Below, in pieces: positions 7,892 to 64,000 of a DNA stretch of 64,000 bases (position 1 is the stretch's first letter; the number at the start of each line of letters is the position of its first letter). The notes under the pieces were generated by a model, which worked only from the letters and a program-made list of their open reading frames with translations, had not been told where the DNA came from and searched no databases. A program made the position numbers and the translations under genes. Source of the DNA: Candidatus Krumholzibacteriia bacterium (GTDB taxonomy: Bacteria > Krumholzibacteriota > Krumholzibacteriia > WVZY01 > JAKEHA01); contig DASUGO010000106.1 in NCBI GenBank assembly GCA_036273975.1, positions 4,943 to 68,942 of the forward strand. The letters run 5' to 3'.

Positions 7892-7909
7892 GCGCTGCGG
7901 TGCTTTCCG

Positions 7910-12356: not shown

Positions 12357-12357
12357 G

Positions 12358-12711: not shown

Positions 12712-12852
12712 GACCGGACTCCTTTCAAAATGTGGGGGTTAGAGGAAAATTACCCCGGTACCCTAGCAATCCCCCCGCACGACTGTCAAGGGGCGATCTC
12801 CCAACAAGGAGTCGGACGGCCCGGCCCGGTTCCCGCCCCCGCGCGCGGTCCA

Positions 12853-16327: not shown

Positions 16328-16330
16328 GCG

Positions 16331-16789
16331 CTACCGGTCACCAAACCGGCGAAACACGTTCAGCACGCCGGGCGTGTCCGCGGCGCGGCGCAGTTCGTCA
16401 CGAAAGTCGGCGTTGCCGAGCAGCCGCGAAATCTTGGCGAGGATCCGGATATGTTCCCGCCGGCTCTGCGGCGGCCCCAGGATTACGAAGATCAGATCCA
16501 CGTCGAGGCTGTCGAGCGCGCCGAAGTCGATGGGCGGGCCGATGCGGTAGAAGCCCGCCACGAGCCGCTCGACGCCCGCCGTGTACGCGTGTGGAATGGC
16601 GACGCCGTGCCCGACGCCGGTCGACATGACGTCTTCCCGCGTCAGCACGTCCGCGGCGGCCGTCGGTGCGTCGGCGATGAACCCCTTCGCGTCGAGGTCG
16701 GCGACGATGGCGCGCAGCACCGGCTCCTTGCCCGTTCCGGGCATGTCGGTGACAACGGTCTCGGGCAGGAACAGCTCGGTTAGTCGCAT
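16331..16789 (-). CDS. PTS EIIA type-2 domain protein (PtsN/EIIA-Ntr-like)
   Basis: The EIIA-2 motif around the phospho-His (GVGHGVAIPHAYTAGVER) is present. The likely start is MRLTELF at 16789. Confidence 0.65.
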   Translation of the reverse strand: MRLTELFLPETVVTDMPGTGKEPVLRAIVADLDAKGFIADAPTAAADVLTREDVMSTGVGHGVAIPHAYTAGVERLVAGFYRIGPPIDFGALDSLDVDLIFVILGPPQSRREHIRILAKISRLLGNADFRDELRRAADTPGVLNVFRRFGDR

Positions 16790-16884
16790 GATTGGAACGG
16801 GTCGCCGGTCATTTCCGGACGGGAATAGAACGTACAACGATAGGTGCGGGCGCGCCGGGTGTCAAGCGCGGACGCCCACACCGC

Positions 16885-17826: not shown

Positions 17827-17852
17827 GACGTCCCATCGCCCCCGCCGGCGCG

Positions 17853-19226
17853 TCAGCGCCCGGGCTCGACGAGGATTTCCTGGCCCACGCGCAGGTCGTC
17901 CGAGCGGCGCATGCCGTTGAGCTGGCGCAGGCGGGCGACCGTGGTCTGATAGCGTTTCGAGAGGTCCCAGAGCGTATCACCGCGCTGGACGCGGTGCACG
18001 ACCGCGCGGCCGGACTGATCGTCCGCGCGCTGCGGCGGGTGGGCGCGGTGGAACGACTCGACGCCGTCGGCGATCGCGCGCGCAATCTTGTCGCGGCCCG
18101 CGGGATCGCGCAGAAGCTTCGCATCCGAGGCGTTGGTGAGAAAGCCACACTCGACGAGCACGGACGGCATCGAAATCGTGCGCAATACCGAAAACGACTT
18201 CTGCTTCACCGATCGAGTGGGCAACAGCCGGCGGTCGCGCACCGATTCGAGAATCGACTCCCCAAGTTGTTCGCTGCGAGCAAGAACCGACTGCTGGTTC
18301 ACGTCGAGCAGGATGTGGACGATGTCGTCGTTGCCGGCGTGGTCGAGTCCGAACTCGTGCGCGGCCTCACCGGACTTGAGCGCCTTGTTGGCGGCGCTTT
18401 CGGCACCCGCGGGCGCCACAAAGAAAATCTCGGCACCGCGCGCCGAGCTGCTGGGGGCCGAATTGAGATGGATGCTGACGAAGACATCGGCCTCTTTCTT
18501 CTCGGCCACCTCGTTGCGCGCCGGCAGCGTGAGATAGGTGTCGCCTTCGCGCGTCAGCACCGCGCGCACGTTGCCGTCGCCGCGGTTGAGAATCTCCGCG
18601 GTCCGGCGCGCGATGTCGAGGGTGAGTTTCTTTTCGACCAGGCCGTAGCGGCCACTCGCGCCGGCGTCGTGCCCGCCGTGTCCGGCGTCGATCGCCACCA
18701 CCAGCGGACGCGGGGCACCCCCGTCACGCCGCACCGGGTTGGATATCGCAGCGACGTCGCCCGTGTCCGCCACTTCGGCTGCGGCCGGGGCTGCCCCGGT
18801 GCCGGGCACCACGGGGATGAAATCCACGACGATACGGAACGGCTTCTGGCCCTGGGCGGGCAGGATGAAGTCATTCCAGCCCAGGCGTCCGGCGAGGTCA
18901 ACGACCACGTCGACACCGCCCGCACGATCGAACGCATTGATCGACCGGATCCCGTTCTGCTCCACCGGGCTCGCGCCGAGCGATGCGCTCCGCGCCGCGC
19001 CTTCGACGCGGATCAGTACCCCGGCCGAGTCGGGAAGATAGCTGACGGTGTAGTCACACGCGCGGGAGAGGTCGAGCACAAGACGGGTCTTTTCGGCCGA
19101 GGCCGAGTGCCGGACCGCTGTAACCAGTGGCCGGCCGGCGGCGAACGCGGTCAACGGGATGGCCACGGCCGCGGCCACCCAGAACGTTTTCCGGCAAAAG
19201 AACTTCAAGCGAAAGCGGTAACTCAT
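17853..19226 (-). CDS. N-acetylmuramoyl-L-alanine amidase (AMIN–Amidase_3–LysM; AmiC-like)
   Basis: A signal peptide, an AMIN-like N-terminal domain, an Amidase_3 core (VVAIDAGHGGHDAGASG...VFVSIHLNS) and a C-terminal LysM (VHRVQRGDTLWDLSKRYQTTVARLRQLN). Confidence 0.8.
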   Translation of the reverse strand: MSYRFRLKFFCRKTFWVAAAVAIPLTAFAAGRPLVTAVRHSASAEKTRLVLDLSRACDYTVSYLPDSAGVLIRVEGAARSASLGASPVEQNGIRSINAFDRAGGVDVVVDLAGRLGWNDFILPAQGQKPFRIVVDFIPVVPGTGAAPAAAEVADTGDVAAISNPVRRDGGAPRPLVVAIDAGHGGHDAGASGRYGLVEKKLTLDIARRTAEILNRGDGNVRAVLTREGDTYLTLPARNEVAEKKEADVFVSIHLNSAPSSSARGAEIFFVAPAGAESAANKALKSGEAAHEFGLDHAGNDDIVHILLDVNQQSVLARSEQLGESILESVRDRRLLPTRSVKQKSFSVLRTISMPSVLVECGFLTNASDAKLLRDPAGRDKIARAIADGVESFHRAHPPQRADDQSGRAVVHRVQRGDTLWDLSKRYQTTVARLRQLNGMRRSDDLRVGQEILVEPGR

Positions 19227-19307
19227 TCCACAAAATTGAGATAAGGAACGGGGGCGACCGCCCCAAGGTACGGGCGCGGGCCGCCCGCTGGCAAGAAGAA
19301 ATTCGGG

Positions 19308-20225
19308 TCAGTCCGCCAGGACAAAACGCATCGGGTCGATGCGCTCGCCGCCCTGCTCGATCTCGTAGTGGAGGTGGGAGAAGGTGGAACGGCCGGTGGA
19401 GCCGACACGGCCGATCACGTCGCCCCGGGTGACCCGCTGGCCCTTCTGGACCAGGCGGCGCTCGAGATGCGCGAAACGGGTGACGAAGCCCCCGCCGTGG
19501 GAGACCTCCACCACGTTGCCGTACGTCTGCCACACACCGGAGAAGGTCACCACCCCGTCCGCCGTGGCGTAAACGGGGGTCCCGAGGCGGGCCGAGAAGT
19601 CGACACCGCGATGCATCGTCCGGCGTCCCGTCATCGGGTCCATGCGCCACCCGAAGCGGCTGGAGATGAAACCCACGTCGACGGGCCGCAGCGACGGCGT
19701 CGTCCGGATCTTCTCGCTGGCGGATTCGAGTTCACCGAGGATCTGTTCGTAGTCGGCCTTCTGCAGGCGGGCCTGACGCAGCAGCTTGTCGATATCGCGG
19801 CGCGCCGAGAGCAGGCGCTCGCGCTCGCGCGGTCCCAGCGACGTCAACAGGTGCGTCGATCCGATCCCGGTGCCGCCGACACCGACCTGGGCGACATCAT
19901 CGTCGAGGTCATCCATGTTGGCAAGGATGCGCGCCTTCTTCTGAAAATCAAAATTCTGCGCAACCTGCCTGCGGAGCGTTTCGACCTCGGAGCCCAGCGT
20001 CTCGAGTTCGCCGCGCAGTTCGGTGTTCTGCGCCTCCAGCGACTCCACCATGTACGCGCCCTTGAGCCGGCTGGAATAGTGCAGCACGACCCACCCGGAA
20101 ACACCGAGCGCAACCATGACCGTGATCCCGAGCGCCATGAGGATGTTGCGCCGCACATGAAATGTGCGCGGCTCGTGGCTTCCCTCGGGAAGGTAGAGAA
20201 AAGTGAGAATCTTGTCGCGAATCAA
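19308..20225 (-). CDS. M23 family metallopeptidase (EnvC/NlpD-like murein hydrolase activator)
   Basis: An N-terminal TM, a coiled coil, and a C-terminal LytM/M23 domain (HRGVDFSARLGTPVYATADGVV...SHGGGFVTRFAHL...HLHYEI). Confidence 0.8.
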   Translation of the reverse strand: MIRDKILTFLYLPEGSHEPRTFHVRRNILMALGITVMVALGVSGWVVLHYSSRLKGAYMVESLEAQNTELRGELETLGSEVETLRRQVAQNFDFQKKARILANMDDLDDDVAQVGVGGTGIGSTHLLTSLGPRERERLLSARRDIDKLLRQARLQKADYEQILGELESASEKIRTTPSLRPVDVGFISSRFGWRMDPMTGRRTMHRGVDFSARLGTPVYATADGVVTFSGVWQTYGNVVEVSHGGGFVTRFAHLERRLVQKGQRVTRGDVIGRVGSTGRSTFSHLHYEIEQGGERIDPMRFVLAD

Positions 20226-46073: not shown

Positions 46074-47950
<1,877 letters not shown>

Positions 47951-50589: not shown

Positions 50590-52119
50590 CTACCACGAGC
50601 CACGCCTGAACGAACGCAGCGAGTTCCATCGTTCCTCCGCCTCCCACCGTTCCCTTAAGGAGGGCACAACGAAGGCGCCACAGTCTCCGCCCGAAACGAC
50701 CGACATTGCGCCCTCCATCATCGTCTGAAGCCCGTCAAAGAAGTCGTCGTGCTCGCCCTGCGGGAACAGGAGGAGCTCGTCCATCAGCGCTTGCCAGTCA
50801 ACCCACGGGCCATGGGCGATATGCTTGGCTGGCAAGAGAATCTGCCCGTTCTCCAGGAACGCCTGTAACCAGTAGGCGCGCGCCACCTTGTCGGTCGTCC
50901 GCTCCATGCGGCGGACCGGCATGTGTTTCTCCGCATCCTGCGCCAGATACTCCTGTGCCGCCACGGTCTCGATCATGACTTTCAAGGGCTTGTACTTCTG
51001 GTTCAACTGCTTGAGCTTGTCCAGGTACTCTTCCTTCGTGCACCGCCCGCGCCAGATTTCCCGCACGTAGACTTCCGAGGCATACTTCTGCTCTTTGAAC
51101 GGCCGCGCACCCACGACAATGGTCCACCAGTCCGTGTCGCTGCGCCCTGCGGAAATGATGGCCTCACGCTTCGTCGCCGCCGGGTCACAGCCAATGAAAT
51201 GGTGCATCTCGGCCCAGTTGGGCTCCTCGTCGTAGAACCGAAACCACTCTTCGCGGAAGATGTGACCCTTCATGAGGCTGGTGTCATTCTGATACTGGGC
51301 GTTGAAGATGATAGAGCCCGCCTGGCGCCGGTGCTCCTCCAACCACTCGAGCGAGAACTTCTCGGGCCATGGCGTGGCTCCGTCCGGCGCAATCGCACGG
51401 ATGATCTGGTGCTTCTCCGCGTACTCGTTTCGGATGAGGTGTCCGTAGAGGTCGAGGTGGTGGTACCGCGTCCCGATGACGAAAAGCCGCCCGTCGGGCT
51501 CCAGGCAAGGAAGCAGCGTCTGGTACCACCACGTTTTCACCCGCTCACGCTGGGTCTCGGTGCGGGCGTTCTCCTCGTCCACCAGATCGTCCGCGATGAT
51601 GAGGTCATAGTGGCGAGAGGCCACCGGGCCACCCACGCCCACGCACGTGATCGTACTCTCCTTCGCGGTTGATGTCCGAGGACCGACCACAATCTCGCGT
51701 GTGTCCCACTTGTCCTCCGAGGCGAAGTTGCCGAAGTATTCCTTCAGCCGATCGTTTTTCTCGAAGTGCGCTTTAATCTCGCGCAGAAACACCTCGGCCT
51801 GGATCTGCGTGTTTGAGGAGATCAGAATGCGGATGTTGGGGTTCTTGAGGATCTCGAAGATCACCCGGGTGATCGTGAGGATCGTCGACTTGCCGTACCC
51901 CCGTGGTGCCAGCTGGAGGCAGGTGTCCGGCGCTGCCCCCTGAAAGTCGATCATCTCCTGGTGGAACGGACGAACGTCGTAGCCGAGCACGTGGGACGCG
52001 AGGAGACCAACTCCACCCTGCCGAACAATCTCGCGCCGGACCGTCTCGCGGCGCAGAGCGCGAAGGCGGAGGACGGTCTGGCGCAGGTCACCTGATCTCG
52101 ATCTCATAGCTATCGGCAC
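50590..52119 (-). CDS. Phage terminase large subunit (TerL)
   Basis: An N-terminal ATPase with Walker A (LAPRGYGKSTILT) and Walker B/coupling motifs (DLIIADDLVDEEN), and a C-terminal RNaseH-like nuclease region (HHFIGCDPAAT...D). At ~509 aa it is typical of TerL. Confidence 0.75.
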   Translation of the reverse strand: MPIAMRSRSGDLRQTVLRLRALRRETVRREIVRQGGVGLLASHVLGYDVRPFHQEMIDFQGAAPDTCLQLAPRGYGKSTILTITRVIFEILKNPNIRILISSNTQIQAEVFLREIKAHFEKNDRLKEYFGNFASEDKWDTREIVVGPRTSTAKESTITCVGVGGPVASRHYDLIIADDLVDEENARTETQRERVKTWWYQTLLPCLEPDGRLFVIGTRYHHLDLYGHLIRNEYAEKHQIIRAIAPDGATPWPEKFSLEWLEEHRRQAGSIIFNAQYQNDTSLMKGHIFREEWFRFYDEEPNWAEMHHFIGCDPAATKREAIISAGRSDTDWWTIVVGARPFKEQKYASEVYVREIWRGRCTKEEYLDKLKQLNQKYKPLKVMIETVAAQEYLAQDAEKHMPVRRMERTTDKVARAYWLQAFLENGQILLPAKHIAHGPWVDWQALMDELLLFPQGEHDDFFDGLQTMMEGAMSVVSGGDCGAFVVPSLRERWEAEERWNSLRSFRRGSW

Positions 52120-52150: not shown

Positions 52151-53068
52151 CTATTCCCACCCGAGGACTTCTTGCAGGTATTCCAACGCCGGGCGCCCTT
52201 CTCTGTCGAGTTGGATACGATAGCCCGACTCGATCCTCTCCTTCACGCGTTGCCCTACCTTATAGGCGGATCCATGCAGGGTCGTCAGGCCGTGGTCCTC
52301 GGTAACCCCGAGTCGTCGGAGATTGAGGTCATCATAGCCAAACCCCAGGAAGTGAATCGCCCTGTAACTGCCTAGATGAAGAGACACATGCCTGAACGGC
52401 TCTCGCGTGATCCCAGGATCATAGGGGATCCGCAAGCACTCCGCGCATCCAGCTATGGCGTCACACGCTACCTCCATACCGTACGGCCGGCTGTAGCTGC
52501 TCGCGGTATCCTGCGCGTTTGGCTGTTCCCACGGGAGATGCCCTAACTTGCCATACATGTGGTCGATCGTAAGCGAATTAACGAAGCGCGCAGCGTCGGC
52601 CTCGGTGCGATTCAATCGGTTCACGATCCACGTGAACAGAAAATGCTCGAGCGAACGATCGTAATTGAACGTGACAAAACCGATTCTCCGATTATCAAGA
52701 TCGGAAGGTCCTGGGAAGAAATGCCGCGCTAGCAGCGCGTACCAGTTCCCGTTCTTCCTATCAAACAGCCTCGCCTCGTCCTCCCGGCGCGCAAGCTCAT
52801 GCGCCATGATCGCCCGGCCCATATCCGAATAGCGCCAGTTGTGCTCCAAGAACTGATCAATCGTCCCCGCCACAGAACGCGTAAGGCGGTCCCGAAAGTC
52901 ACCTATGTCCTCGTCACCATACCCGAGTTCGCCGAGAGTGCGACGAATCGGCGAACTGTCATCGGCTAGCCCGTCAATGATGGAGTCGCAAAGGTCCCGG
53001 CCGGTGGGAAACCCGAAGGGAACGCTGGCACCGGCTCCCAAGACCAGCAGAATCGGTTCATCCGGCAT
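52151..53068 (-). CDS. SIR2_2-family (defence-type sirtuin-like, predicted NAD+-consuming) protein
   Basis: It opens with the SIR2_2 hallmark LLVLGAGASVPFGFPTGRDL. The conserved TFNYDRSLE (N-Y-D) motif and a downstream KLGH (KLHG-like) motif are also present. The start could be any of several Met codons between 53068 and 53167. Confidence 0.6.
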   Translation of the reverse strand: MPDEPILLVLGAGASVPFGFPTGRDLCDSIIDGLADDSSPIRRTLGELGYGDEDIGDFRDRLTRSVAGTIDQFLEHNWRYSDMGRAIMAHELARREDEARLFDRKNGNWYALLARHFFPGPSDLDNRRIGFVTFNYDRSLEHFLFTWIVNRLNRTEADAARFVNSLTIDHMYGKLGHLPWEQPNAQDTASSYSRPYGMEVACDAIAGCAECLRIPYDPGITREPFRHVSLHLGSYRAIHFLGFGYDDLNLRRLGVTEDHGLTTLHGSAYKVGQRVKERIESGYRIQLDREGRPALEYLQEVLGWE

Positions 53069-53085
53069 CCTGATTCCCCAAGCCG

Positions 53086-53745
53086 TCATAGGATTGATCG
53101 CCACCATTTCTTTGGCGGCCATAAGAGCTTCACTTGTGGTTTCCAGAACATCGGATCGACCATGCAAACGCCGTCCTGCCCCTCGACGTGCGTGATCATG
53201 ACGTTTGATTCTCCATGGTACTCAGGCCGCTGGGCGAAGCCGAGGTAGGCCGCAAACTGGTCGAAGGCGTGGTGCTCGAAAAACTCCTTGGGAACGATCT
53301 TGTGAAGCGCCCCGAACTCGCCAGACCTTGCCCAGACCCTCAGGCGCCCGGTATGTGCCGCTTCCCGCACCTCTTGCGCTATTCTCAAGTATGGATCGAC
53401 GAGAGCGTCAATCTGCCTGTCGGTGAGTTCAGGTTCATCTTTGGGTGCAATACTCACCATCGGGCGAAGCCCCGATCCGATCCGGCTCTCATTCCCCAGG
53501 TAGTGCAACAACTCATCCATCGTGAAGTTCGGCCGCGGCCACGCGTACCACCAGAGCCAAATCGTCGCTCGCACGCCAAGATAGACGAACAACACGGTCG
53601 CACCGAGAAGTGCAGGAATCAGATAAGCGGGCACGCGATCAATCACAGCGAGAACGGTCGCGCACCCCGCTAGAACCCAGATCACTACCTGTCCAGCAAA
53701 AGCAAGCTCGCCAAGAACCTGTAACGAGCGTCTAAGTCTGTTCAT
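53086..53745 (-). CDS. Two-TM membrane protein with a ~130-aa cytoplasmic domain (hypothetical), operonic with the SIR2-like gene
   Basis: Two N-terminal hydrophobic helices (VVIWVLAGCATVLAVI; LIPALLGATVLFVYLGVRATIWLWWYAW) then a soluble domain. Its stop lies within ~20 nt of the SIR2 start, and its start overlaps the upstream Zn-ribbon ORF by 4 nt. Confidence 0.45.
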   Translation of the reverse strand: MNRLRRSLQVLGELAFAGQVVIWVLAGCATVLAVIDRVPAYLIPALLGATVLFVYLGVRATIWLWWYAWPRPNFTMDELLHYLGNESRIGSGLRPMVSIAPKDEPELTDRQIDALVDPYLRIAQEVREAAHTGRLRVWARSGEFGALHKIVPKEFFEHHAFDQFAAYLGFAQRPEYHGESNVMITHVEGQDGVCMVDPMFWKPQVKLLWPPKKWWRSIL

Positions 53746-54357: not shown

Positions 54358-54993
54358 ATGCTGGACTTCGCATCCCAAGAAGAGATCGCCCGCGCGATGC
54401 TGGCGATGGTGCGCTACCTGCCCGCCCTCGTCCGGGCGTTCGAGGCGGGTGTTATCGACCTCGGCCTCACCATCACCGAGCGGGCCTTGAGCCGCGACGC
54501 GGAAGGCACTGTGCTCCCCACGCTCGTGGTCAAGGGCGGGCACCTCACCTACCACCTCGGCCTCCGGAACGCCATTGAGGACTTCCTCGCCGTCGACCGC
54601 GAGGCCCGGCCGGTTCACGTGGACCCCGGCCTCGATGACGACACTTACGCGCAAGCGAAGATCGCCGACATCATCTCCGGGCGGCTGGCGCTCGTAAAGC
54701 TCGTCGAGGAGAGCTCGGACCTCGCGGAGGCGCAACAACGCATGAAGGACCTGGGCAAGGGGTTTGCCTGGCTCCGCTCGGTTGTCGTGGACGGCCCAGA
54801 GAACGTCGAGAGACCCGTGTGCAAACTGGTTGGGACCGACGGCAACGTGTTCGCCGTCATCGGTCGGGTCCGAGAGACACTCCAACGTGCGGGGCAGACT
54901 AGCAGTGCGTCGGAGTTCGTGAAGCGAGCATTTGCCGCTCGGTCCTACGACGAGGTGCTCCGGCTGTGCATGGAATACGTGGAGGTTCGATGA
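54358..54993 (+). CDS. Hypothetical protein (211 aa), translationally coupled to the tyrosine integrase
   Basis: An ORF with good codon usage. Its stop overlaps the integrase start as ATGA. It is the first gene of a plus-strand block within a minus-strand region. Confidence 0.45.
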   Translation: MLDFASQEEIARAMLAMVRYLPALVRAFEAGVIDLGLTITERALSRDAEGTVLPTLVVKGGHLTYHLGLRNAIEDFLAVDREARPVHVDPGLDDDTYAQAKIADIISGRLALVKLVEESSDLAEAQQRMKDLGKGFAWLRSVVVDGPENVERPVCKLVGTDGNVFAVIGRVRETLQRAGQTSSASEFVKRAFAARSYDEVLRLCMEYVEVR

Positions 54994-55886
54994 TGCAAGC
55001 GATGACGCTTCAGGCAGCGATCCAACGATTCGAGGTCCAGCTCCGGGCGGACGGGAAGAGCCCCCGGACCCGGGAGTGCTACCTCTGGGACCTGGAACGC
55101 CTCGCCCGGGCTCTGGGCCCCAGGACTGCGGTGCGGTCTATCACGCCCCACCGGCTGGCCCTGTTCGTCAACTCCTCGGGGTTCGCCTTGACCCCGGCCG
55201 GCCGGCCCAAGAAGCCCGCGTCCGTCAACCGCTCAAAGACCGCCCTCCGGGTGTTCTTCCGGTTCCTCGTCGACTCGGACTACTTGACCCGAAACCCGGC
55301 CCGACTTGTGCGATACGCGCGCCTGCAGCAGCTCCCAGCGCGGGCGATGAAAGCCGCGGAAGTGGATCAGCTGCTCAAGACGATCGGCAAGCACCGCGGG
55401 CCGCTCGCCCGGCGCGACGAACTGATGTTCCGGCTCATGCTGGGTACGGGAATCCGGCTGGGGTCGCTGGTCGGCTTGAACCTCGGGGATCTGGACTTGA
55501 AGGCGGGGACGCTGCGTATCAAGGCGAAGGGGGGCGTCGAGCAAACGGTATACCTGAACGCAGGCCTTCGGCGGGACCTCGGCCTTCACGTCAAGACGCA
55601 GACGGGCGGTGAAGGTTCTGTCTTCCGCTCGCACGGGGGTGGTCGAATCGGCCCCCGCCAGGTCCAGATTCGGTTTGCGCATTGGCGGGACCGGGTGGGA
55701 CTCGGTCAGGTCTTTACGGTGCATTCCCTTCGCCACACCTTCGCGACCCGGCTCTATCAACAGACCCGCGATCTGCACCTCGTTCGGGAGGCTCTCGGTC
55801 ATGCGAGCGTCGGGACAACTCAACGGTACGCGGTGGTGGACAAGCGGAGCCTTCGATCTGCCATTACTCGCCTGTCAGTCCCGTGA
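54990..55886 (+). CDS. Tyrosine-type site-specific recombinase/integrase (XerC/XerD-like)
   Basis: An N-terminal SAM-like core-binding domain (CYLWDLERLARAL) and the catalytic domain R...HSLRHTFATRLY...LGHASVGTTQRY with the catalytic Tyr context. Confidence 0.85.
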   Translation: MMQAMTLQAAIQRFEVQLRADGKSPRTRECYLWDLERLARALGPRTAVRSITPHRLALFVNSSGFALTPAGRPKKPASVNRSKTALRVFFRFLVDSDYLTRNPARLVRYARLQQLPARAMKAAEVDQLLKTIGKHRGPLARRDELMFRLMLGTGIRLGSLVGLNLGDLDLKAGTLRIKAKGGVEQTVYLNAGLRRDLGLHVKTQTGGEGSVFRSHGGGRIGPRQVQIRFAHWRDRVGLGQVFTVHSLRHTFATRLYQQTRDLHLVREALGHASVGTTQRYAVVDKRSLRSAITRLSVP

Positions 55887-56039
55887 TGCTCTCCCTGAGA
55901 AAGTCCCTCGCTGACCCGCCAAGGCAAGGCGCTCGATTCTTTCCTATGCTATTCTGATAGTCTGACCAACCGGACCTTCAGTTTCTTGTACCCATCGGAA
56001 ACGCAGTGGTTACAACGCTCATGACGTGCACCGCGACCG

Positions 56040-56786
56040 ATGGAGCCTGGCGGTAGGTTGACGGCCGGTCGGCACTGGGCCTCATCCGAAGGAACCATTG
56101 TATTGCTGCGAGTCAGCGTCGTCTTTGTCTTGCGCGCGCTGGTACGTTCCGAGTGGCGCATGGTGCGCCTCCGAGTCGAGCTTGAGCGCACACGCCTTGC
56201 CAACCGCGTCGACGTTGCTCCGCCTCTGATCGCCCAGCAGTTGCTTGTCTCGGGCGAGGATCACAGACACGCCCGGCATCCAGGCTTCGATCTATTCGCA
56301 ATTGGCCGCGCACTCTGGCGGCGTGTGGCACATGGATCGCGTGAAGGTGCCAGCACAATCGAGCAGCAGGTAGTCCGTACAATCACAGGGCGATACGAGC
56401 GCACCCTTCGTCGCAAATTGAAGGAGATACTGCTCGCCATCCTCGTGGCCCAGTCCTTTCCGAAGGAGATCCTCCCATCTGTATATCTCCAGATCGCTTA
56501 TTATGGTTGGCGTATGAATGGTTATCAGCAGGCGTGCCAGCGGCTTGGGCTGCATCCCAGCTCCTTGGCGCTGGACGAAGCCGCCGGTTTGGTCGCGCGG
56601 CTGAAGTATCCCGAGCCGAGAACCGCACCGTCCACGCGAACGCTTCAGATCGGTTACCGTACGGAGCACCTACTTGGCCTTTATCGGCGGCACGTGCATG
56701 AAGGGAATTACAGGCATCTCAATGGCAAGACCGTTTGCAATAGAGCCTCGGCTCATGCAGCTACTGAGCCCATACCCGAGCGCTGA
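56040..56786 (+). CDS. Monofunctional peptidoglycan glycosyltransferase (GT51 transglycosylase)-like protein
   Basis: An N-terminal TM (IVLLRVSVVFVLRALV) and GT51 motifs (GEDHRHARHPGFDLFAIGRALWRRVAHG...GASTIEQQVVR...RRKLKEILLAILVAQSFPKEILPSVYLQIAYYG). It lies in the lower-GC cargo region. Confidence 0.55.
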   Translation: MEPGGRLTAGRHWASSEGTIVLLRVSVVFVLRALVRSEWRMVRLRVELERTRLANRVDVAPPLIAQQLLVSGEDHRHARHPGFDLFAIGRALWRRVAHGSREGASTIEQQVVRTITGRYERTLRRKLKEILLAILVAQSFPKEILPSVYLQIAYYGWRMNGYQQACQRLGLHPSSLALDEAAGLVARLKYPEPRTAPSTRTLQIGYRTEHLLGLYRRHVHEGNYRHLNGKTVCNRASAHAATEPIPER

Positions 56787-57405
56787 CGAGCTCCGCGCGG
56801 CGTTATCCGGAGGCACGCGCCGTAGCCGAGAGATCGTCACGCGTCTCTGGCTGACCGAAGGCCTCCCCGCTGCCTTCCGAGGTTGCCCCGCGATATACGA
56901 AGAAGTGCGCGGCTGGCTCGGCACTCAACTTGGCATCCATCCGAAGGAGATTACGCTCATCGGGAGCGCGAGAGTCGGCTACTCACTCGCCCCAGCGCCC
57001 GATTTCGGAAGGCGCTTTGGCAAACACTCTGACCTCGATCTGAGCGTCATTTCCGCGCAGCTATTCGCACGTTTGGTTACGGCGTTCAACCTTTTCGCAG
57101 ACGATTACAGACAGAACTCCGCGGTCCCCAGGAGCGATCGCGAGCGTGAGCTCTGGGACGACAATCTCCAATTCGGTCGGCGCAACATTCCTCGAGGCTT
57201 TCTGGACGCCAGAAAGATACCGAACTTCGCCCGTTACTCGGATTCTCAAAACATCAACCAAACAATGTGGGTGCTGCTGAAAAAGTTTGAAGTCACTCCT
57301 GGAGCACCCGAGGTTCGGAGGGTTTCCGTCCGCGTGTACCGAGATTGGCAATGCTTCATCGACCAAGTTTCGCTGAATCTTCGAAGCGCGCTTCCCACAG
57401 CGTAA
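56755..57405 (+). CDS. Pol-β-fold nucleotidyltransferase (minimal NTase; SMODS/CD-NTase-like or MNT-like)
   Basis: The signature LIGSARVGYSLAPAPDFGRRFGKHSDLDLSVI matches the hG[GS]...D.D motif of pol-β NTases. Downstream acidic candidates (FADDY, WDDN) could supply the third catalytic residue. The start (56722 or 56755) is uncertain because it overlaps the GT51-like ORF. Confidence 0.45.
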   Translation: MQLLSPYPSADELRAALSGGTRRSREIVTRLWLTEGLPAAFRGCPAIYEEVRGWLGTQLGIHPKEITLIGSARVGYSLAPAPDFGRRFGKHSDLDLSVISAQLFARLVTAFNLFADDYRQNSAVPRSDRERELWDDNLQFGRRNIPRGFLDARKIPNFARYSDSQNINQTMWVLLKKFEVTPGAPEVRRVSVRVYRDWQCFIDQVSLNLRSALPTA

Positions 57406-57632
57406 TCTGCGTTAGGGCAAATACGCGCTACGCCTTTAGGGCAACGCCTCCCCGGCATCCCGAATCCCTCGGGCGGCATCAGGGCAATGCAGGGCTTCGC
57501 TGTGATCGACAACCGGGGCCCGCCCGCTGCCGTAATTGGTCCTCTCCTTGTTGCAGTCCATTCAACTCCGTTTCCGAACAGGCATCCATGCAGACTTGCG
57601 AAACGCTGTGCTCGCGCCAAGACGCCTGACTG

Positions 57633-58352
57633 ATGATCTGCGCGCTCATCGACTACTGGCGCTATAGGCGACGCCCAGGGCGATTCGGCATCATTGGCCA
57701 GAGGAGCCTGATGACCTCGGCGTACAATGGGACGTTGCCGGACGCCTTAGTCGACCGCCTTCGGCCGGGAGACATCCTGTTTATCCAGAGCCTGCATTCC
57801 TTCCCGGCCTGGCTGGTTATGTACCTCACCAAGTCCGAGGTCAGCCATGTCGCTTCGTATATCGGTGGCAAACGTATCATTCACGCAACTTTCAGCGGCG
57901 TTACCGAGGAGCCACTGGCCGTGCTATTCACGCCTAACACGCTCCTATTCGCCTGCGGAACGCGCTCCACGTCCGAGCAGCAAACTTCCTTCGTTCCAGC
58001 TGCGAGAGCGCGTGTGGGGAGGCGCTATGGTTGGTTCTGGGTTGTTCTCAAGGGGCTATTTATCTTCACCGGCCGGGACCCGCTTTACTTCCGATGGAGC
58101 TTCTTTCTTGATTTCGCGGTCCTATTTGTCGCCCTTGGCGCACCGTTCGTTGCCCTAGAATGGTTCCCTTTTCCATTGCTGCTGTTTCCTATGTACTTCC
58201 TCGTTGTTATTATGAACTCGCTGATTGCACACCACCGACCGCTGCCCGTCGTCGGACTACTTGCCAAGCCCGTTGAGGTACTCATGATCGCGTGGGCGGA
58301 AGGGTGGGACTTCTACCTGAATCCAGCGGGTGGCGCGGATCCCGATTCCTAG
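57633..58352 (+). CDS. Membrane protein with an N-terminal permuted papain-fold (LRAT/YaeF/NlpC-P60-like) domain and C-terminal multi-TM region
   Basis: A His-first permuted NlpC/P60 pattern (RPGDILFIQS...SHVASYIGGKRIIHA, then a Cys in LLFACGT). The C-terminal ~110 aa form 3-4 hydrophobic helices (WFWVVLKGLFIF; FLDFAVLFVALGAPFVAL; LLLFPMYFLVVIMNSLIA). Confidence 0.4.
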   Translation: MICALIDYWRYRRRPGRFGIIGQRSLMTSAYNGTLPDALVDRLRPGDILFIQSLHSFPAWLVMYLTKSEVSHVASYIGGKRIIHATFSGVTEEPLAVLFTPNTLLFACGTRSTSEQQTSFVPAARARVGRRYGWFWVVLKGLFIFTGRDPLYFRWSFFLDFAVLFVALGAPFVALEWFPFPLLLFPMYFLVVIMNSLIAHHRPLPVVGLLAKPVEVLMIAWAEGWDFYLNPAGGADPDS

Positions 58353-58403
58353 GGCATTGGTACAGATCTGCACCCCCGGCGGGCTAATTCTTGCTCTCAG
58401 CAA

Positions 58404-58557
58404 GGCCTCCGCCACCGTTGCCACCCGGCTTTGCCTTCAGACTCGCGATCTCCATCTCGTTCGAGAGGCCCTCGGGCACGCGGGCGTCGGGACGACACAG
58501 CGGCACGCTGTCGTGGACCGGAAAAGCCTCCGCACCGCCATCGCGCGTCTCCGATAG
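58404..58557 (+). pseudogene. Degenerate 3' fragment of a tyrosine integrase gene, paralogous to 55738-55886
   Basis: The translation VATRLCLQTRDLHLVREALGHAGVGTTQRHAVVDRKSLRTAIARLR aligns with the intact integrase C-terminus FATRLYQQTRDLHLVREALGHASVGTTQRYAVVDKRSLRSAITRLSVP. The nucleotide similarity is roughly 70% by eye. It has no N-terminal part. Confidence 0.55.
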
Positions 58558-58592: not shown

Positions 58593-60155
58593 CTAGAGAA
58601 TGTCGTCTAAATACTTGACGACCCCCAGCCGCAAGCGGTGTGGAAAGACCAGCAAGAACAGGGGTAGGAGCTGAGGACACTGGCCAATACCCACCGGTAG
58701 TTCATCGGCGGCCTTCGCAGCCTCTTCAACCAGTTGCTTCCAGCTCTGCGTTTGATTCGGAAATCGACTCCGCAGTTCGCCGTGTCGTGCACGATACGTG
58801 TAATACTCCCAAGTATCCTTGGGCACAAACTCAGACATGTTGCTTCGACTTATCGGTCGCCACTTCGTTTCAAGGTATTTTCGCATGCCGCTTCGTACGG
58901 CAAGCGTGACCAGTGAGTCAAGCGCATACGAGTTGCCTGCAAATGTTTCATCCGCAGCCTCAACCGCGAGGCCCATCTGCCCCCGAACGATTGACTCGAG
59001 TTCGTAATACGGGCTCATCAGTTCATACTGGTCGTGCTCGTTGGCGGCGATAATCGAATTGATCAGTTTCTGCAAGAGCTTCATCGCCCACTCCACTTTC
59101 TCCGTCGCCTCAAGGTACCAGATGATGTTCAAGAAGCACGGAAACGCCGCTTCCGAGTACAGCATGAACGCTTCTTGATGCTGTTCGATGAACTGACTCG
59201 TATCATCGGATCTCCAATCCGACTTCCCCAAGAGCTTCCTGGTCAAGCCGAGAGCCGCCAAGTATCCAGCAATGAGTGTCGCCCGGTACCTAACAAACCG
59301 ACCGTCGAAGAAACTCGTTCCCATCAGCAGATCGGGGCTATTCGCTGCCTCTTTTTCGAGCTCCCCGAGCGCGCGTTCCACGCCCTCCAAACACAAGGAG
59401 ATAGTCGTCCTGAACTCTCCATAACTCCCTACTTTTTCTGCAAGAGCACAGGCCGTCGCCGCAACAATGACCAAGCTGTCGGCAACCGCCCACCAGTTCT
59501 TTTCCCGTTCGTGCGGGGCAATCAGATAGCTTCCGATCAGCAATCCACTAGCTGCAGCGCGGCAGCCATGTTTCGCATCTGTCTCGGTGTCGAGTCCCGT
59601 CAGGGACCGGAGAATCTGAGCGAGATCGCTTCTGGGAGCCGGAGCACGCCCATCGCGCGCATAAAGGTTAAGGAACGATCGCAGATCACTGACTTCCCGG
59701 GGCAAGAAGTGTTCGCTTGCATTCGTGAACTGAGTGAGCAATTGGCCCTTCACAAGCACATCGAGGGTGTTCCCTCCCGAACGCCTCCGGTCCTCGTTCC
59801 GGTCGTCGATCTGGCGTCTTACAGGATCTTTCAGATCTCCGGAGACGACCAGACAAGCTCGGTGGCGTTTGGACTTGTCGACGCTGGGGTGATGGATTGC
59901 AATATCGAGAAGCTCTTCAACCTCCCCGACTATCTGACGCCATCGGGCAAGTGTAATGTCTCCGACTTTCAGCTGGTAGGCGCACGGCGTACCGTCTGGA
60001 TGGATGGTGATGACGTCTTTGCCTTGCTCGTCCGGTCCGTGCGGAGACAGGTGCACTATCTCATGCCCTTGCAACGCGAGCAGCTGACAGAACGGGACCT
60101 GAAAGGCGCGCTCCTCGACATCAGTCAACCAGTTTTCGATTACCCTCTCGATCAT
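58593..60155 (-). CDS. Hypothetical 520-aa protein with a putative N-terminal PD-(D/E)xK-like nuclease motif
   Basis: In the first ~70 aa the N-terminus (VEERAF...HLSPHGPDEQGKDVITIHPDGTPCAYQLK) has an E...PD...Q-x-K arrangement reminiscent of restriction-endonuclease-fold nucleases. The rest is a long α-helical region. It lies in the lowest-GC part of the window. Confidence 0.4.
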   Translation of the reverse strand: MIERVIENWLTDVEERAFQVPFCQLLALQGHEIVHLSPHGPDEQGKDVITIHPDGTPCAYQLKVGDITLARWRQIVGEVEELLDIAIHHPSVDKSKRHRACLVVSGDLKDPVRRQIDDRNEDRRRSGGNTLDVLVKGQLLTQFTNASEHFLPREVSDLRSFLNLYARDGRAPAPRSDLAQILRSLTGLDTETDAKHGCRAAASGLLIGSYLIAPHEREKNWWAVADSLVIVAATACALAEKVGSYGEFRTTISLCLEGVERALGELEKEAANSPDLLMGTSFFDGRFVRYRATLIAGYLAALGLTRKLLGKSDWRSDDTSQFIEQHQEAFMLYSEAAFPCFLNIIWYLEATEKVEWAMKLLQKLINSIIAANEHDQYELMSPYYELESIVRGQMGLAVEAADETFAGNSYALDSLVTLAVRSGMRKYLETKWRPISRSNMSEFVPKDTWEYYTYRARHGELRSRFPNQTQSWKQLVEEAAKAADELPVGIGQCPQLLPLFLLVFPHRLRLGVVKYLDDIL

Positions 60156-60720
60156 GCCAGTCCTTCCGCTTGCGCTCCATCAACTCGGTAAAACGCCGCT
60201 TGCAGTCTTCCTTCTGTTCCCATGCGGGCATCTCCTTCCGGATGTGCGCACCCAATTCCGGACTAACGACGAGCGCCGGCATCTTCGGCTTTCCGCTTCC
60301 TTCATCAAAATCAATTTCCAAACGCTCCAGCGCTTCGAGAAACAGATCAAAGGAAAACGGCTTTCCGCATCCATCAACAGCGGTACCCGCTTCCTCAGAA
60401 ACACGCGATACAGTGGAATACATCATTCGGGCAAGGTTCCCCGCCATTTCCTCGGCGACTTTGTCAAACTTCTCCATGATCTCGGCAACAGATAGGTCTT
60501 TCAATTCCTCATGAGTTATCGTGAAGTCCACGCCGAGATCCTTGTAATCCATTTGACGCCGCCCACCCTCCACGGTTCTGTAGGCGCGCGTGTCTCCTTC
60601 GTGTTGCGCCGAACGCCCCACTGTCGCAAGGAATGGGTCGGCCGAATGAACGCGCGCGCGTACGCGCTGATTGACCAAGTTCATGAGTTCGCGATGTATC
60701 GCCGGGAAGTCTGGAAGCAT
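60121..60720 (-). CDS. Hypothetical 199-aa protein, overlapping upstream partner of the 520-aa gene
   Basis: An ORF co-oriented with the 520-aa gene and overlapping it by 35 nt. Acidic and helical, with no recognised motif. Confidence 0.35.
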   Translation of the reverse strand: MLPDFPAIHRELMNLVNQRVRARVHSADPFLATVGRSAQHEGDTRAYRTVEGGRRQMDYKDLGVDFTITHEELKDLSVAEIMEKFDKVAEEMAGNLARMMYSTVSRVSEEAGTAVDGCGKPFSFDLFLEALERLEIDFDEGSGKPKMPALVVSPELGAHIRKEMPAWEQKEDCKRRFTELMERKRKDWHDREGNRKLVD

Positions 60721-61776: not shown

Positions 61777-64000
61777 CTACTGACCTCGCGGTGCCTTCTG
61801 AAGCTGCCGATCGAAGTCTGCGAGCATCTCCTTGATCTCCGCGTCGTCCGGGTGGCGTGTGAGCCACTCGGTCAGGTAGCCGCGCGCACGGTCGTACATT
61901 CCCGCGCGCACTCCAAGTGTGTAGCCCATCATGACGAGTTCCTGACTCTCCGGGTCCACGCGCAAGATGGGATCGATCAGCTCCAGCGCCGCGGGGTAAT
62001 CACCGATTTTCTCGTAAACACCCGCGAGCCGGTACATCAGCTGCATGTCACCCGGACTCTCGCGCAGGGCATCCAGATAGAACTGCACCGCCTGCGTGGT
62101 ATCGCCAGCATCGAGATAGTAGAGCCCCAGCAACTGGCGAGGCGGCTCGAGCTGCGGAGAAATCTGCCCCGACACTGCCATGTATCGCGCCGCCTGCTGG
62201 TAGTCCCCTTCCCGGTGCTTCTCATAGGCGAGCTGCACAAACGCGGCCGAGTAGTTCTGAATCAGGTGCTCGATGTACGGCTGCAGGTAGATACTGTTGT
62301 CCCGCTTCCAGTTCTTGTCGAGAATACCGCCGTAGGTGAACTCGTTGACGATACAATTCTCAAGCTTCGGCACGTTCACCATGTTCTCGCCCTTGCGACG
62401 CACCACCTTGTACGCCAACCCTTCCATCTCCAGAATGTCCCGGTATGGCGCAAAGGTGCTGGACGGGATCGTCACCGCAAAGTAGATGGGGCGCTCGAAC
62501 TTGTTCGTGCGAAGGATGTGGTCTACAGCGAGGTCGCGCGGTAGTAACCACCGATCCCCTGACGGGACCATCTCAATATTGTCGATTTGCTCGTCGCTCC
62601 AAGCGATAGGCACCCTTGGCTCGTTGTCCCGACACTGTTTCATATACCACGGCGTGCTGAGCAGGCTTAGATTCACGACGCGCACATCCTTCCGATACCC
62701 CTCCACCTCCTGGATGTACCATAGCGGAAACGTGTCATTATCGCCGTTGGTAAACAGAATGGCGTTCGGCTCCAAGCAAACAAGCATGTTGCGACCGTAC
62801 TCGGCGCAGGTGTGGTTCTTCGACCGGTCGTGCATGAAGTAGTGCTGCCGGAGCGTGGTGAAAGGCATCGCAAGCAGCAACGCAACGCACGCCACAGTGG
62901 TCGGAACCGCGTACCCGCCACGCGCAAACAGATTGCGAAGTTCCGCCAGCACACTGCACGCACCAATGCCGATATAGATCGCAAAGTAGTAGAATGCCGG
63001 GGAGTAGAAGTAGTCGCGCTCACGCACCTCGCTGTCTGAAAAATTCAGAAAGATGATCAACCCAACGCTCATTACCAGCAATGTTGTAAACAACATTATG
63101 AACGTCTTCCGATGCTTGGCAAACTGGTCGACCATACCCCAGATGCCGAGTCCCACAGGAATCAGCGAACCTAGGTTGACATTCCCGACGTACGCTTGGA
63201 ACATCTGGAACTGGGCTTGGAAGTACGCGTTGAAATGTTGAAATTGAAAGGCCCAGGTCGCCTTGCGATGGATCATACTGGTGGGCGGGTACTGCTCGCG
63301 GCGAATCACCGCGTACAGGTTGCGCCACGACTCCGGGTCCGCCTCATCGAGGGCAGGGTTGTGCAAAGAGCGTATGAGCAGCATGAGGTGCACGCTGAGA
63401 CCGAGGATGAAAAGCCCCGTGCATACGGCGGCGAACGGTCGACCACGACCGTAAAGCCAAATTGTAGCCGCCGCCAGCCCAACCAAAAAGAATAGCGTGA
63501 GCCCGCTGTCACGGTAGATGGTTACGTCAGCGACAAATATTCCCAACGCCCCGCTAGCAATGAACCACTCCAACGTGAAAAAAGGACGATCTTTCGACAT
63601 CAGCACGAAAACAAATATCCCCGAGAAGACGAGCACGGTGCCGAGGTGGAAGCCCACACTCAACGCGAGCAGGTAGAAGGTGAGATAAATAAGCGACGTC
63701 GACCGCGTCGTCTTGGGCATATCACCCCACTTGATGGTGAGCCAGGTCATGAAGCCCATGAACGCGGTGCTCATGCTGTAGACCTCGGCCTCTGTGGAGT
63801 TCGTCCAATAGGTGTCACTGAAAGCAAGGAACAGAGCCCCAGTCAACGCCCCACCAACACGCACAACCTGGTCCGCGGTCGTTTGACTGCGCCCCTGCAT
63901 GTCATCCAAAAGACGAACAATCAATGCGTAAACAAGGAGTACTCCGGCCGCGCCACAAAACGCGGAGAGGAGATTGACGCGTTGAGCTACCGAGAGAAAC
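61777..64000 (-). CDS. DUF2723-family integral membrane protein (putative glycosyltransferase) with C-terminal TPR repeats. The 5' end runs off the window.
   Basis: About 11 TM helices in the first ~450 aa with a DUF2723-like layout, then TPR repeats (YYLDAGDTTQAVQFYLDALRESPGDMQLMYRLAGVYEKIGDYPAALE). The frame stays open upstream of the annotated TTG to the window end (..LLSAFCGAAGVLLVYAL). Confidence 0.7.
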   Translation of the reverse strand, partial: FLSVAQRVNLLSAFCGAAGVLLVYALIVRLLDDMQGRSQTTADQVVRVGGALTGALFLAFSDTYWTNSTEAEVYSMSTAFMGFMTWLTIKWGDMPKTTRSTSLIYLTFYLLALSVGFHLGTVLVFSGIFVFVLMSKDRPFFTLEWFIASGALGIFVADVTIYRDSGLTLFFLVGLAAATIWLYGRGRPFAAVCTGLFILGLSVHLMLLIRSLHNPALDEADPESWRNLYAVIRREQYPPTSMIHRKATWAFQFQHFNAYFQAQFQMFQAYVGNVNLGSLIPVGLGIWGMVDQFAKHRKTFIMLFTTLLVMSVGLIIFLNFSDSEVRERDYFYSPAFYYFAIYIGIGACSVLAELRNLFARGGYAVPTTVACVALLLAMPFTTLRQHYFMHDRSKNHTCAEYGRNMLVCLEPNAILFTNGDNDTFPLWYIQEVEGYRKDVRVVNLSLLSTPWYMKQCRDNEPRVPIAWSDEQIDNIEMVPSGDRWLLPRDLAVDHILRTNKFERPIYFAVTIPSSTFAPYRDILEMEGLAYKVVRRKGENMVNVPKLENCIVNEFTYGGILDKNWKRDNSIYLQPYIEHLIQNYSAAFVQLAYEKHREGDYQQAARYMAVSGQISPQLEPPRQLLGLYYLDAGDTTQAVQFYLDALRESPGDMQLMYRLAGVYEKIGDYPAALELIDPILRVDPESQELVMMGYTLGVRAGMYDRARGYLTEWLTRHPDDAEIKEMLADFDRQLQKAPRGQ

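Follow-up and report, generated by a model that had tools for sequence, protein, structure and literature searches.

A putative two-cassette array downstream of a Xer-like integrase carries a widespread GT51-like/nucleotidyltransferase gene pair

On balance, we read the region downstream of a Xer-like tyrosine integrase on a small mobile element as an array of two gene cassettes, the first of which holds a GT51-like/nucleotidyltransferase (NTase) module that is probably of the toxin–antitoxin (TA) or abortive-infection type. The region lies in a stretch of 64,000 nucleotides from a Candidatus Krumholzibacteriia contig, hereafter the window, whose features are listed in Table 1.

Table 1. Element backbone, cassette genes and integrase-3′ repeats in the window
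Feature	Positions	Strand	Evidence or remark
tRNA-Met	46074-46150		Abutted by the serine recombinase
Large serine recombinase	46107-47950	−	Island left end; split into two ORFs; PF00239, PF07508, Zn_ribbon_recom; phrog_95
Terminase-large-subunit-like (TerL-like) gene	50590-52119	−	Element backbone; phrog_38 4.9e-97
Xer-like tyrosine integrase, 298 aa	54990-55886	+	PF00589 (Phage_integrase) 1.9e-31; PF02899 2.8e-5
Repeat copy 1	55740-55886	+	Last ~46 codons of the integrase, inside the intact gene
Divergent GT51 peptidoglycan glycosyltransferase-like gene	56040-56786	+	Cassette 1, gene 1; PF00912 2.1e-29
Divergent minimal pol-β-type NTase	56719-57405	+	Cassette 1, gene 2; overlaps the GT51-like gene; database gene call starts at 56755
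Repeat copy 2, degenerate integrase 3′ end	57462-57540	+	Boundary of cassettes 1 and 2; nhmmer E 4.2e-5, 18.0 bits
Rare membrane protein	57633-58352	+	Cassette 2; weak YaeF/C92-like (permuted NlpC/P60) N-terminal region; sub-threshold HMM matches
Repeat copy 3, integrase 3′-end pseudogene fragment	58413-58557	+	Residue ~252 to stop; nhmmer 8.9e-36

The integrase, the three co-oriented plus-strand genes behind it and the diverged repeat of the integrase's 3′ end, all described in an earlier sequence-only reading of this DNA, were confirmed. The direct repeat pairs positions 55736-55873 with 58413-58550 at 75% identity across 138 nt. Copy 3 keeps the integrase frame and stops two codons ahead of the integrase's own stop, and its catalytic RY reads RH, with the catalytic Tyr replaced by His. 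Comparison of copy 3 with the integrase end gave a dN/dS of 0.12 (pS 0.61), indicating that the fragment was formerly a working C-terminus. A search with an nhmmer profile built from 20 integrase-3′ copies, run against 51 shuffled or reversed controls, detected a further copy (copy 2) between the NTase gene and the membrane-protein gene, at 18.0 bits versus 10.5 bits for the top control. Its translation, QGFAVIDNRGPPAAVIG, was compared with QRYAVIDKRSLRAAVSR. The sequence-only reading had missed this copy and had described a single cassette; the position of copy 2 indicates that the region consists of two.

Close relatives of the integrase (70-77% amino acid identity) recurrently have variable cargo downstream, bearing out the earlier suggestion of an insertion hotspot or cassette-exchange site. 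In this slot, where type I and type II restriction-modification (R-M) systems both occur, we found AbiEi/AbiEii between two repeats (locus L040), a type I R-M system (L037), a Panacea-domain gene and a BamHI-like R-M system (L053), an MmeI R-M system (L055) and a TerB/BrxCD-like/helicase cluster (L056), together with genes of unknown type. Same-orientation repeats bounding cassettes, the feature by which we recognize an array, number three in the window, all on one strand, and cargo at six further independent loci (L036/L040, L039, L044/L048, L047, L053 and L054) is bounded by integrase-3′ fragments on the strand of the integrase. Every fragment in those six loci extends to the stop codon; most span just 25-46 codons, with start points between residues 163 and 271 of 298. 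The sequence available for L037, L038, L055 and L056 contains no integrase fragment. Identity among integrase orthologues is 75-90% as far as residue ~280 and then drops to random by the stop codon. Codon identity among the intact orthologues had no clear peak in the 3′ end and singled out no conserved nucleotide core. Taken together, the variable cargo and the stop-reaching 3′ fragments in related loci lead us to read the locus as a cassette array of an integron-like or tandem-accretion kind.

The recombination site appears to lie in the 3′ end of the integrase gene itself. The direct repeats between cassettes would duplicate the gene's final 25-46 codons, and the simplest mechanism would be site-specific recombination within its 3′ coding end, directly after the catalytic Tyr codon. 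The incoming unit would supply a replacement C-terminal tail and the earlier tail would be displaced downstream as a fragment, in a process resembling integron or tandem-island accretion. Alternatively, the fragments may be debris from tandem insertion of whole related elements at a single attachment site, followed by deletion of most of the older copies, with no recombination at the level of cassettes. Several observations are consistent with such debris: L053 carries a tandem pair of full integrases along with a TerL fragment and an integrase fragment of 134 aa (residues 163-296), in L038 a second copy of the integrase lies 2.2 kb downstream, and the serine recombinase of the window is split. 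However, random deletion would be expected to leave 5′ and internal pieces as well, whereas the fragments found are all 3′ pieces in the orientation of the integrase, extend to the stop codon and are mostly 25-46 codons long; no true 5′ or internal integrase fragment was seen among those in related loci. In addition, the fragment in L036/L040 lies just ~60 nt past the intact integrase gene, and L039 has single-gene units that are each followed by a fragment. We therefore consider debris somewhat unlikely and favor the cassette array.

Such an array shares with integrons (IntI with attI and attC) a tyrosine recombinase beside promoter-proximal cassettes inserted at the same site, repeated putative recombination sites and adaptive cargo. 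It differs in that the repeats are the integrase's own 3′ coding end rather than attC hairpins, and in the position of the array, which here follows the integrase but in integrons is upstream and divergent. The window integrase was also rejected as an integron integrase, scoring 74.8 bits on TIGR02249 against a cut-off of 265, with the match in two separate stretches. Tandem island arrays at gene 3′ ends are formed by tRNA-targeting islands, tycheposons and the Xer-exploiting IMEX arrays at dif; integration regenerates the 3′ end of the target and leaves a displaced partial copy, so that cargo units lie between partial target repeats. The cargo units described here are likewise separated by partial target repeats, but the repeated target is the end of the integrase gene rather than a tRNA or dif, and several units have no recombinase of their own. 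A literature search for cassette arrays at integrase 3′ ends returned no description.

The integrase is carried by a small mobile element, ordered serine recombinase, TerL-like gene, SIR2-like gene and integrase, which sits beside tRNA-Met in a Krumholzibacteria-type chromosome. It is XerC/XerD-like, matching TIGR02224 (XerC) at 4.8e-47 yet far under the model cut-off, and has the tyrosine recombinase motifs HSLRH...LGH...RY together with an N-terminal SAM-like domain (PF02899); database protein P0273 is identical to it. The TerL-like gene is linked to this type of integrase in six other loci (L037, L039, L053, L054, L055 and L056; 77-85% amino acid identity), and L039, L053 and L055 have serine recombinase homologues at the corresponding position. 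A comparison of the island right end with the rest of the window for att-type exact repeats yielded only chance 12-13-mers.

The GT51-like/NTase pair of cassette 1 is a widespread, mobile two-gene module that is undescribed and has neither an annotation nor a defense-database entry. The GT51-like gene, which the sequence-only reading had regarded as an oddity, is the invariant partner of the NTase: the two adjoin in 21/21 independent fetched loci, on one plasmid and on one viral contig. These loci span many phyla, in a patchy distribution; gene order is constant, the two genes often overlap, and at least five proteins are GT51 (Transgly)-NTase fusions, P0133, P0224 and P0244 being natural fusions of this kind. 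The family comprises 1255 clusters at 50% identity. Across the fetched loci, neither a third conserved gene nor any other conserved envelope gene accompanies the pair, which is a stand-alone insertion. On an Aliarcobacter plasmid it lies beside TIR, PLD, DUF4365 and DUF4917 genes, and in L010 beside Lit-peptidase and Schlafen-like genes. Most of the 117 neighboring ORFs tallied were housekeeping genes, some matched R-M or other defense functions, and defense models were matched by single neighbors only; given this mixed survey, we do not claim defense-island enrichment for the pair. The NTase had no match in cultured-phage genomes and matched one contig in IMG/VR. PADLOC, including its CBASS/SMODS, MNT-HEPN, AbiE and other defense models, matched none of the three cargo genes, and a literature search for a GT51 plus NTase system returned no description. 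One cultured species, Cohnella fermenti CC-MHH1044 (NZ_SSOB01000001.1, about 295.3-296.6 kb), has the pair, as does the Aliarcobacter plasmid pM830MA (WP_148572020.1 and WP_148572019.1), so that it is directly testable.

The earlier call of a GT51-like transglycosylase was upheld by the PF00912 match. The motifs ED, GxSTxxQ and RKxxE are invariant across 25 family members, as are residues E73, D74, H80, G82, G103, T106, Q110, R125, K126 and E129. The protein thus has the complete GT51 catalytic motif set of MtgA and class A PBPs, but it scores far under the cut-offs of all NCBIfam equivalogs (for MtgA, 61 bits versus 182), is always coupled or fused to the NTase, and is accessory and mobile. 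It also mostly lacks the N-terminal transmembrane (TM) anchor or signal peptide of canonical GT51 enzymes: by a hydropathy estimate only (Kyte-Doolittle mean ≥1.6 over an N-terminal 19-residue window), 22/25 members have no N-terminal membrane anchor. The window copy, taken from the longest ORF start, is among the three exceptions with a hydrophobic N-terminus. In the GT51-NTase fusions, hydropathy indicated no hydrophobic segment between the domains.

The pol-β signature and third acidic residue proposed for the NTase were both borne out: G70-S71, D93xD95 and D151 are invariant across 42 homologues, and an AF2 model places them on strand 66-68/helix 71-74, strand 93-99 and strand 149-151, respectively. 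Its best structural neighbors are minimal NTases of the MNT antitoxin type, as weak matches. A profile search against PDB sequences gave nothing meaningful, a Foldseek search against PDB and BFVD gave no significant match, no cGAS/DncV-like structural match was obtained, and Pfam SMODS did not match. The sequence-only reading had named an MNT antitoxin with a nearby HEPN partner as the alternative to a signaling enzyme. Half of this was found, in that MNT enzymes are the (weak) structural neighbors, yet an HMM search of the ORFs near the NTase in the window detected no HEPN domain. The resemblance to HepT/MntA (HEPN-MNT, a type VII TA system) ends at the minimal NTase, whose conserved partner is the GT51-like gene and which adjoins no HEPN gene.

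We infer a TA or abortive-infection role for the pair. The effector would be a cytoplasm-facing GT51 domain, which, on the wrong face of the membrane, may consume or sequester lipid II and the undecaprenyl carrier, and the NTase may restrain it through nucleotidylylation or a nucleotide product. Zeta/PezT provides a precedent, as a cytoplasmic TA toxin that kills by poisoning the supply of peptidoglycan precursors (reviewed in PMC10532202). The parallel with the proposed GT51-like toxin is mechanistic only, as Zeta/PezT is a kinase acting on UDP-GlcNAc, with an unrelated fold and chemistry.

The pair might instead be an accessory cell-envelope module rather than a conflict system, with a glycan polymerase and an NTase-fold transferase of the LicD/fukutin style that decorates the polymer. 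The catalytic residues kept in both proteins, the housekeeping genes in many neighborhoods and the RefSeq name of the NTase's partner, ‘biosynthetic peptidoglycan transglycosylase’, would all suit an envelope function. Its improbability, in our judgment, comes from the patchy, stand-alone occurrence of the pair apart from other envelope genes, the missing anchor or signal peptide in most members as estimated from hydropathy, the TIR and PLD genes beside the plasmid pair, and its place in an integrase slot that at other loci contains AbiE and R-M systems. A reversal of roles, in which the NTase is the toxin and the GT51-like protein an antitoxin or sensor, is very improbable. MenT and AbiEii are NTase toxins that nucleotidylylate tRNA, and AbiEii occupies the equivalent slot in L040; antitoxin genes in general commonly lie upstream, the position of the GT51-like gene here. 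However, the NTase has no likeness to AbiEii or MenT by sequence or structure, and a mere antitoxin would not be expected to keep the GT51 catalytic motifs so strictly.

The most far-reaching version of our preferred reading joins a cassette-capture platform with its recombination site inside the integrase 3′ coding end to a new abortive-infection or TA system, gated by the MNT-like NTase, that kills through peptidoglycan glycosyltransferase chemistry on lipid II at the cytoplasmic face. We regard this combination as speculative and, as a whole, doubtful. If it holds, each captured cassette would give the integrase a new C-terminal tail, with the old tail becoming a spacer, and the element would represent a new integron-like shuttle of defense genes in soil FCB-group bacteria. 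Active repeats would offer mobile elements a simple self-templating route for gathering and swapping defense genes, and would make integrase tails a new search handle for cargo. The coupling of an NTase to a GT51 enzyme in the cytoplasm would be a new biochemical theme, be it for immunity or for envelope biology.

Cassette 2 encodes a rare membrane protein that is unrelated to cassette 1 and has a degenerate YaeF-like domain. The sequence-only reading had paired this protein with the NTase as a CBASS/SMODS-like effector, to be activated by an NTase nucleotide signal; this idea, to which the conserved NTase triad, the hydrophobic segments and the weak C92/NlpC-P60 matches lend themselves, is now barely credible and largely refuted, as the other 23 NTase loci all lack the membrane protein and both homologue contexts read lack the NTase, an integrase repeat separates the two genes, and PADLOC found no such system. 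The permuted papain fold and the three to four TM helices attributed to the protein proved weaker than first described. HMM matches to its His-containing N-terminal part are present but weak and below curated cut-offs (PF05708, 7e-5, 23.4 bits versus 27; NF008552 YaeF, 2.9e-7, 29.9 bits versus 279), and hydrophobic segments are present but number two to three. The protein had no phmmer match in PDB, and its AlphaFold model (pLDDT 41) was too poor for use. The candidate catalytic Cys109 is not conserved, being Val in P0124 and in a paralogue encoded in L013. Among just three homologues, His72 and His84 are invariant, and the protein shares the pattern GDxLF ... SHV ... IHAT with the YaeF/YiiX C92 and LRAT families; the C-terminal catalytic Cys helix of those families appears to have been swapped for hydrophobic segments.

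The NTase-like protein is one of a large family without characterised members: a word-indexed search returned 147 matches, typically about 224 aa long and none with a Pfam domain, and an exhaustive search returned 1255 cluster representatives at E <= 1e-3. All 21 independent loci drawn from long contigs and 20 GTDB species genomes have a GT51-like gene directly upstream of the NTase gene and co-directional with it; the two genes overlap by up to ~70 nt or are separated by no more than ~90 nt. The pair was also present on an Aliarcobacter plasmid and one IMG/VR contig. Its hosts include delta-, alpha- and betaproteobacteria, Nitrospirae, Acidobacteria, Bacteroidota, Ignavibacteria, Aminicenantes and the firmicute Cohnella fermenti, and no third conserved gene was found beside it in the loci examined. 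At least five representatives (P0133, P0224, P0240, P0244 and P0205) are single-polypeptide Transgly-NTase fusions. Adjacency in every locus examined, together with these fusions, indicates that the GT51-like protein and the NTase almost certainly work together. The P0205 fusion has an additional C-terminal region of ~180 residues (454-634) with no Pfam match, and a 497-aa ORF of a Bacteroidota locus (L032, 316-1809) is possibly an N-terminal fusion of the GT51-like region to another domain. In a Logan contig (L009), positions 4145-4888 are the same DNA as 56040-56786 of the window; the public gene calls missed the GT51-like gene and placed two antisense ORFs there, so the pair would be invisible in that annotation.

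The sequence-only reading had instead paired the NTase with the membrane protein, as a CBASS-like enzyme and its papain-fold effector. This pairing was not borne out. The membrane protein has only three homologues and is absent from all examined loci carrying the GT51-like/NTase pair elsewhere, and the two homologues with readable context both lack the pair; thus, NTase and membrane protein were never co-located outside the window, and the partner of the NTase is the GT51-like gene. Of those two contexts, one adjoins QatABC and other defence-like genes and the other is an unrelated neighbourhood. The membrane protein is a separate cassette. The database matches to its proposed papain fold are sub-threshold, and the papain-like catalytic Cys seems to have been lost. 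The closest homologue (L012, 1047-1682; 64% identity) lies <10 kb from QatA/QatB/QatC-like, HNH_5, ASCH and LRAT-domain genes, in a defence-island-like setting. Another locus (L013) encodes a homologue and, about 600 nt off on the opposite strand, a diverged paralogue with 31% identity and a longer C-terminus (10001-10714; 11327-12247 on the minus strand).

Features of the island and its boundary in the window
Feature	Position	Strand	Remarks
Large serine recombinase	46107-47950	-	two ORFs
TerL-like (terminase large subunit) gene	50590-52119	-	phrog_38 4.9e-97
SIR2-like gene	52151-53167	-	weak PADLOC SIR2 matches, E about 1e-3
Tyrosine integrase	54990-55886	+	PF00589 1.9e-31
GT51/Transgly protein	56040-56786	+	PF00912 2.1e-29
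NTase-like protein	56719/56755-57405	+	no family match in Pfam, NCBIfam or PADLOC
Hydrophobic membrane protein	57633-58352	+	239 aa; sub-threshold YaeF/C92 matches
Two genes without assigned family	58593-60720	-	520 aa and 199 aa
TMEM260-like/TPR gene	61777-63924		taken as host, after island

The duplication of the integrase 3' end was confirmed: the 138-nt stretches 55736-55873 and 58413-58550 are read in one frame on one strand and share 75% identity. At 58500-58505 of the distal fragment (codons for RH in QRHAVVD) the catalytic Tyr codon is now His, and the rest of the tail is well conserved. A DNA profile built from 20 copies revealed a degenerate third copy (57462-57540; E 4.2e-5; 18.0 bits, versus <=10.5 bits for the best of 51 reversed or shuffled controls) that lies in the intergenic stretch separating the NTase and membrane-protein genes. 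The order in the window is integrase, GT51-like and NTase genes, repeat, membrane-protein gene, repeat. The third copy thus divides the cargo into two repeat-bounded units, a layout that agrees with the independent distributions of the pair and the membrane protein.

Repeat copies and slot cargo at loci with related integrases
Locus	Repeat copies	Slot cargo
L036/L040	same-strand copy ~60 nt downstream of integrase	
L037		type I R-M
L039	two copies, each following one uncharacterised gene	
L040	as listed for L036/L040	AbiEi/AbiEii between two repeats
L044/L048	short same-strand copy downstream of integrase	
L047	two copies flanking 962-aa gene	
L053	134-aa copy and 25-aa copy	DUF5677, Panacea-domain gene, NOV_C/SNF2, BamHI-like R-M
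L054	single copy 1.5 kb downstream	
L055		MmeI-type R-M
L056		SEC-C / DEAD-DUF2779 / BrxCD-like / TerB cluster

All fragments lie downstream of the integrase on its strand and extend as far as its stop codon position. At the 5' side they begin anywhere from aa 163 to aa 271 of 298, most of them from 252 to 271, and no true 5' or internal integrase fragments were seen among the loci with fragments. In L037, L038, L055 and L056, cargo was present and the repeat was not detected in the sequence at hand. A comparison of the integrase end with the distal fragment gave a dN/dS of 0.12, and synonymous sites were close to saturation (pS 0.61). The distal fragment therefore stems from another integrase end that was once functional, and did not arise by local duplication in recent times. 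Orthologous integrases share 75-90% of their nucleotides as far as the catalytic Tyr, at about codon 280, and identity then drops to random between codon ~283 and the stop, indicating that the conserved backbone ends, and the variable region begins, within the last dozen codons. Given this drop and the one-sided, same-strand fragments, the simplest reading would be recombination at a site within the integrase 3' end, although a crossover core could not be defined there. The incoming unit would bring a compatible tail, in the manner of tRNA-targeting islands, which bring a replacement tRNA end. Insertion of whole elements in tandem, followed by decay, also happens, as shown by L053 with its two full integrases, TerL fragment and long integrase fragment. 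At 5709-19418 of this 194-kb contig, the two full integrase copies and a third, partial copy stand in tandem, interleaved with DUF5677, a Panacea-domain gene, NOV_C and SNF2-like genes and a BamHI/BglII-type R-M system, so that much defence cargo has accumulated at a single site. The array is akin to integrons and to tandem island arrays, but its repeat is the integrase's own coding end.

The integrase itself is a simple Xer-like tyrosine recombinase; it matched the XerC model far below the cut-off (4.8e-47) and failed the integron-integrase model. A metagenome scan found 13 contigs with relatives whose best segments show 70-87% aa identity, and 19 full-length relatives with 70-76% identity came from a word-indexed search. 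Very long contigs of Eisenbacteria, Zixibacteria and Latescibacteria carry a single copy of integrases with ~50% identity, so the element's integrase may derive from a chromosomal Xer recombinase of such bacteria.

In the predicted NTase, the residues of the pol-beta signature (G70-S71, D93xD95 and D151) do not vary among 42 sequences. A confident AlphaFold model (pLDDT 92.7) shows a minimal NTase topology in which they occupy the beta1/helix turn, beta2 and beta3. Foldseek against PDB and BFVD gave no significant match, the leading, insignificant PDB matches being the NTases TUT4 and CutA. These features point to a pol-beta NTase that is divergent and has helical additions specific to its family, and not to a CD-NTase. 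The GT51 catalytic motifs (ED...H.G, GxSTxxQ, RKxxE, YL and ARLKYP) are invariant in 25 members, including fusions, and selection maintains the protein as an enzyme. The hydrophobic stretch at its N-terminus spans only ~10-14 residues and is missing in some members; 22 of the 25 lack an N-terminal 19-residue window with a Kyte-Doolittle mean of at least 1.6, and the fusions have no hydrophobic segment between the Transgly and NTase domains. Since NTases need NTPs, we infer that both domains act on the cytoplasmic side, which would be unusual for GT51.

By gene content, the slot is mainly a site for defence and toxin-antitoxin cargo; in relatives it also carries several genes without assigned function. 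This cargo is the main contextual argument for reading the pair as a conflict module. Further hints come from its neighbours on the Aliarcobacter plasmid (IS21, DUF4365, PLD, TIR and DUF4917) and at another locus, L010 (Lit peptidase U49, DUF2726 and Schlafen/AlbA). Among 117 ORFs neighbouring the pair at 18 loci, housekeeping families dominate and matches to R-M and other defence genes are scattered; therefore, we claim no defence-island enrichment. On balance, the pair is somewhat more likely than not a mobile module of the toxin-antitoxin or abortive-infection type, as opposed to an accessory of envelope biosynthesis. It fails the membership tests for CBASS and HEPN-MNT; its sole likeness to the latter is the minimal NTase, for which no HEPN partner exists, and no PADLOC model matches the cargo genes. 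A specific model, doubtful in its particulars and drawn by analogy with MntA/HepT (PMC7641770), would place an anchorless GT51 effector at the inner leaflet, restrained by an MNT-like NTase. The GT51 domain would polymerise or sequester lipid II there, starving wall synthesis, and the NTase would restrain it via nucleotidylylation or a nucleotide ligand. A second analogy for such an effector is the way in which PezT-type toxins poison wall precursors. The literature searched, incomplete in coverage so that an earlier description is possible, held no description of the pair or of the integrase-tail array.

As a chromosomal contig of a Krumholzibacteria-type MAG, the window has ordinary host genes from 1 to ~45 kb (GlyS, MgtE, AspS, HtrA, sigma-54 activators, Omp85 and an ECF sigma factor) and the island from tRNA-Met (46074-46150) to ~61.7 kb. 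The island also carries uncharacterised genes between the serine recombinase and the integrase and after the three cargo genes. The element backbone runs serine recombinase, g354, TerL-like, SIR2-like, integrase, and is conserved in parts in the window, L037, L039 and L053-L056. Across these loci, the TerL-like gene (77-85% aa identity) shares a conserved backbone of ~10 kb with the integrase and the serine recombinase; its surroundings held no recognisable portal, capsid or tail genes, which suggests a satellite-like or non-phage use of the TerL-type ATPase/nuclease. The serine recombinase is split into two overlapping ORFs on the minus strand (46107-46742 and 46739-47950); the catalytic and recombinase domains come first, followed by the zinc-ribbon/C-terminal part, whose ORF overlaps tRNA-Met. 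Because the same split recurs in related elements (L039, 1194-3062; L053, 1-1165), a conserved frameshift or an arrangement as two proteins may explain it, and not a pseudogene. The SIR2-like protein, in which only the N-terminal GAGxS motif is present, is kept at the same backbone position in L055 (7259-8179; 55% identity) and may serve the element as a resident defence gene. The two minus-strand genes without assigned family separate the final integrase repeat from the TMEM260-like/TPR gene, the first recognisable one after it, and the 199-aa product weakly matches a Wolbachia T4SS-associated family.
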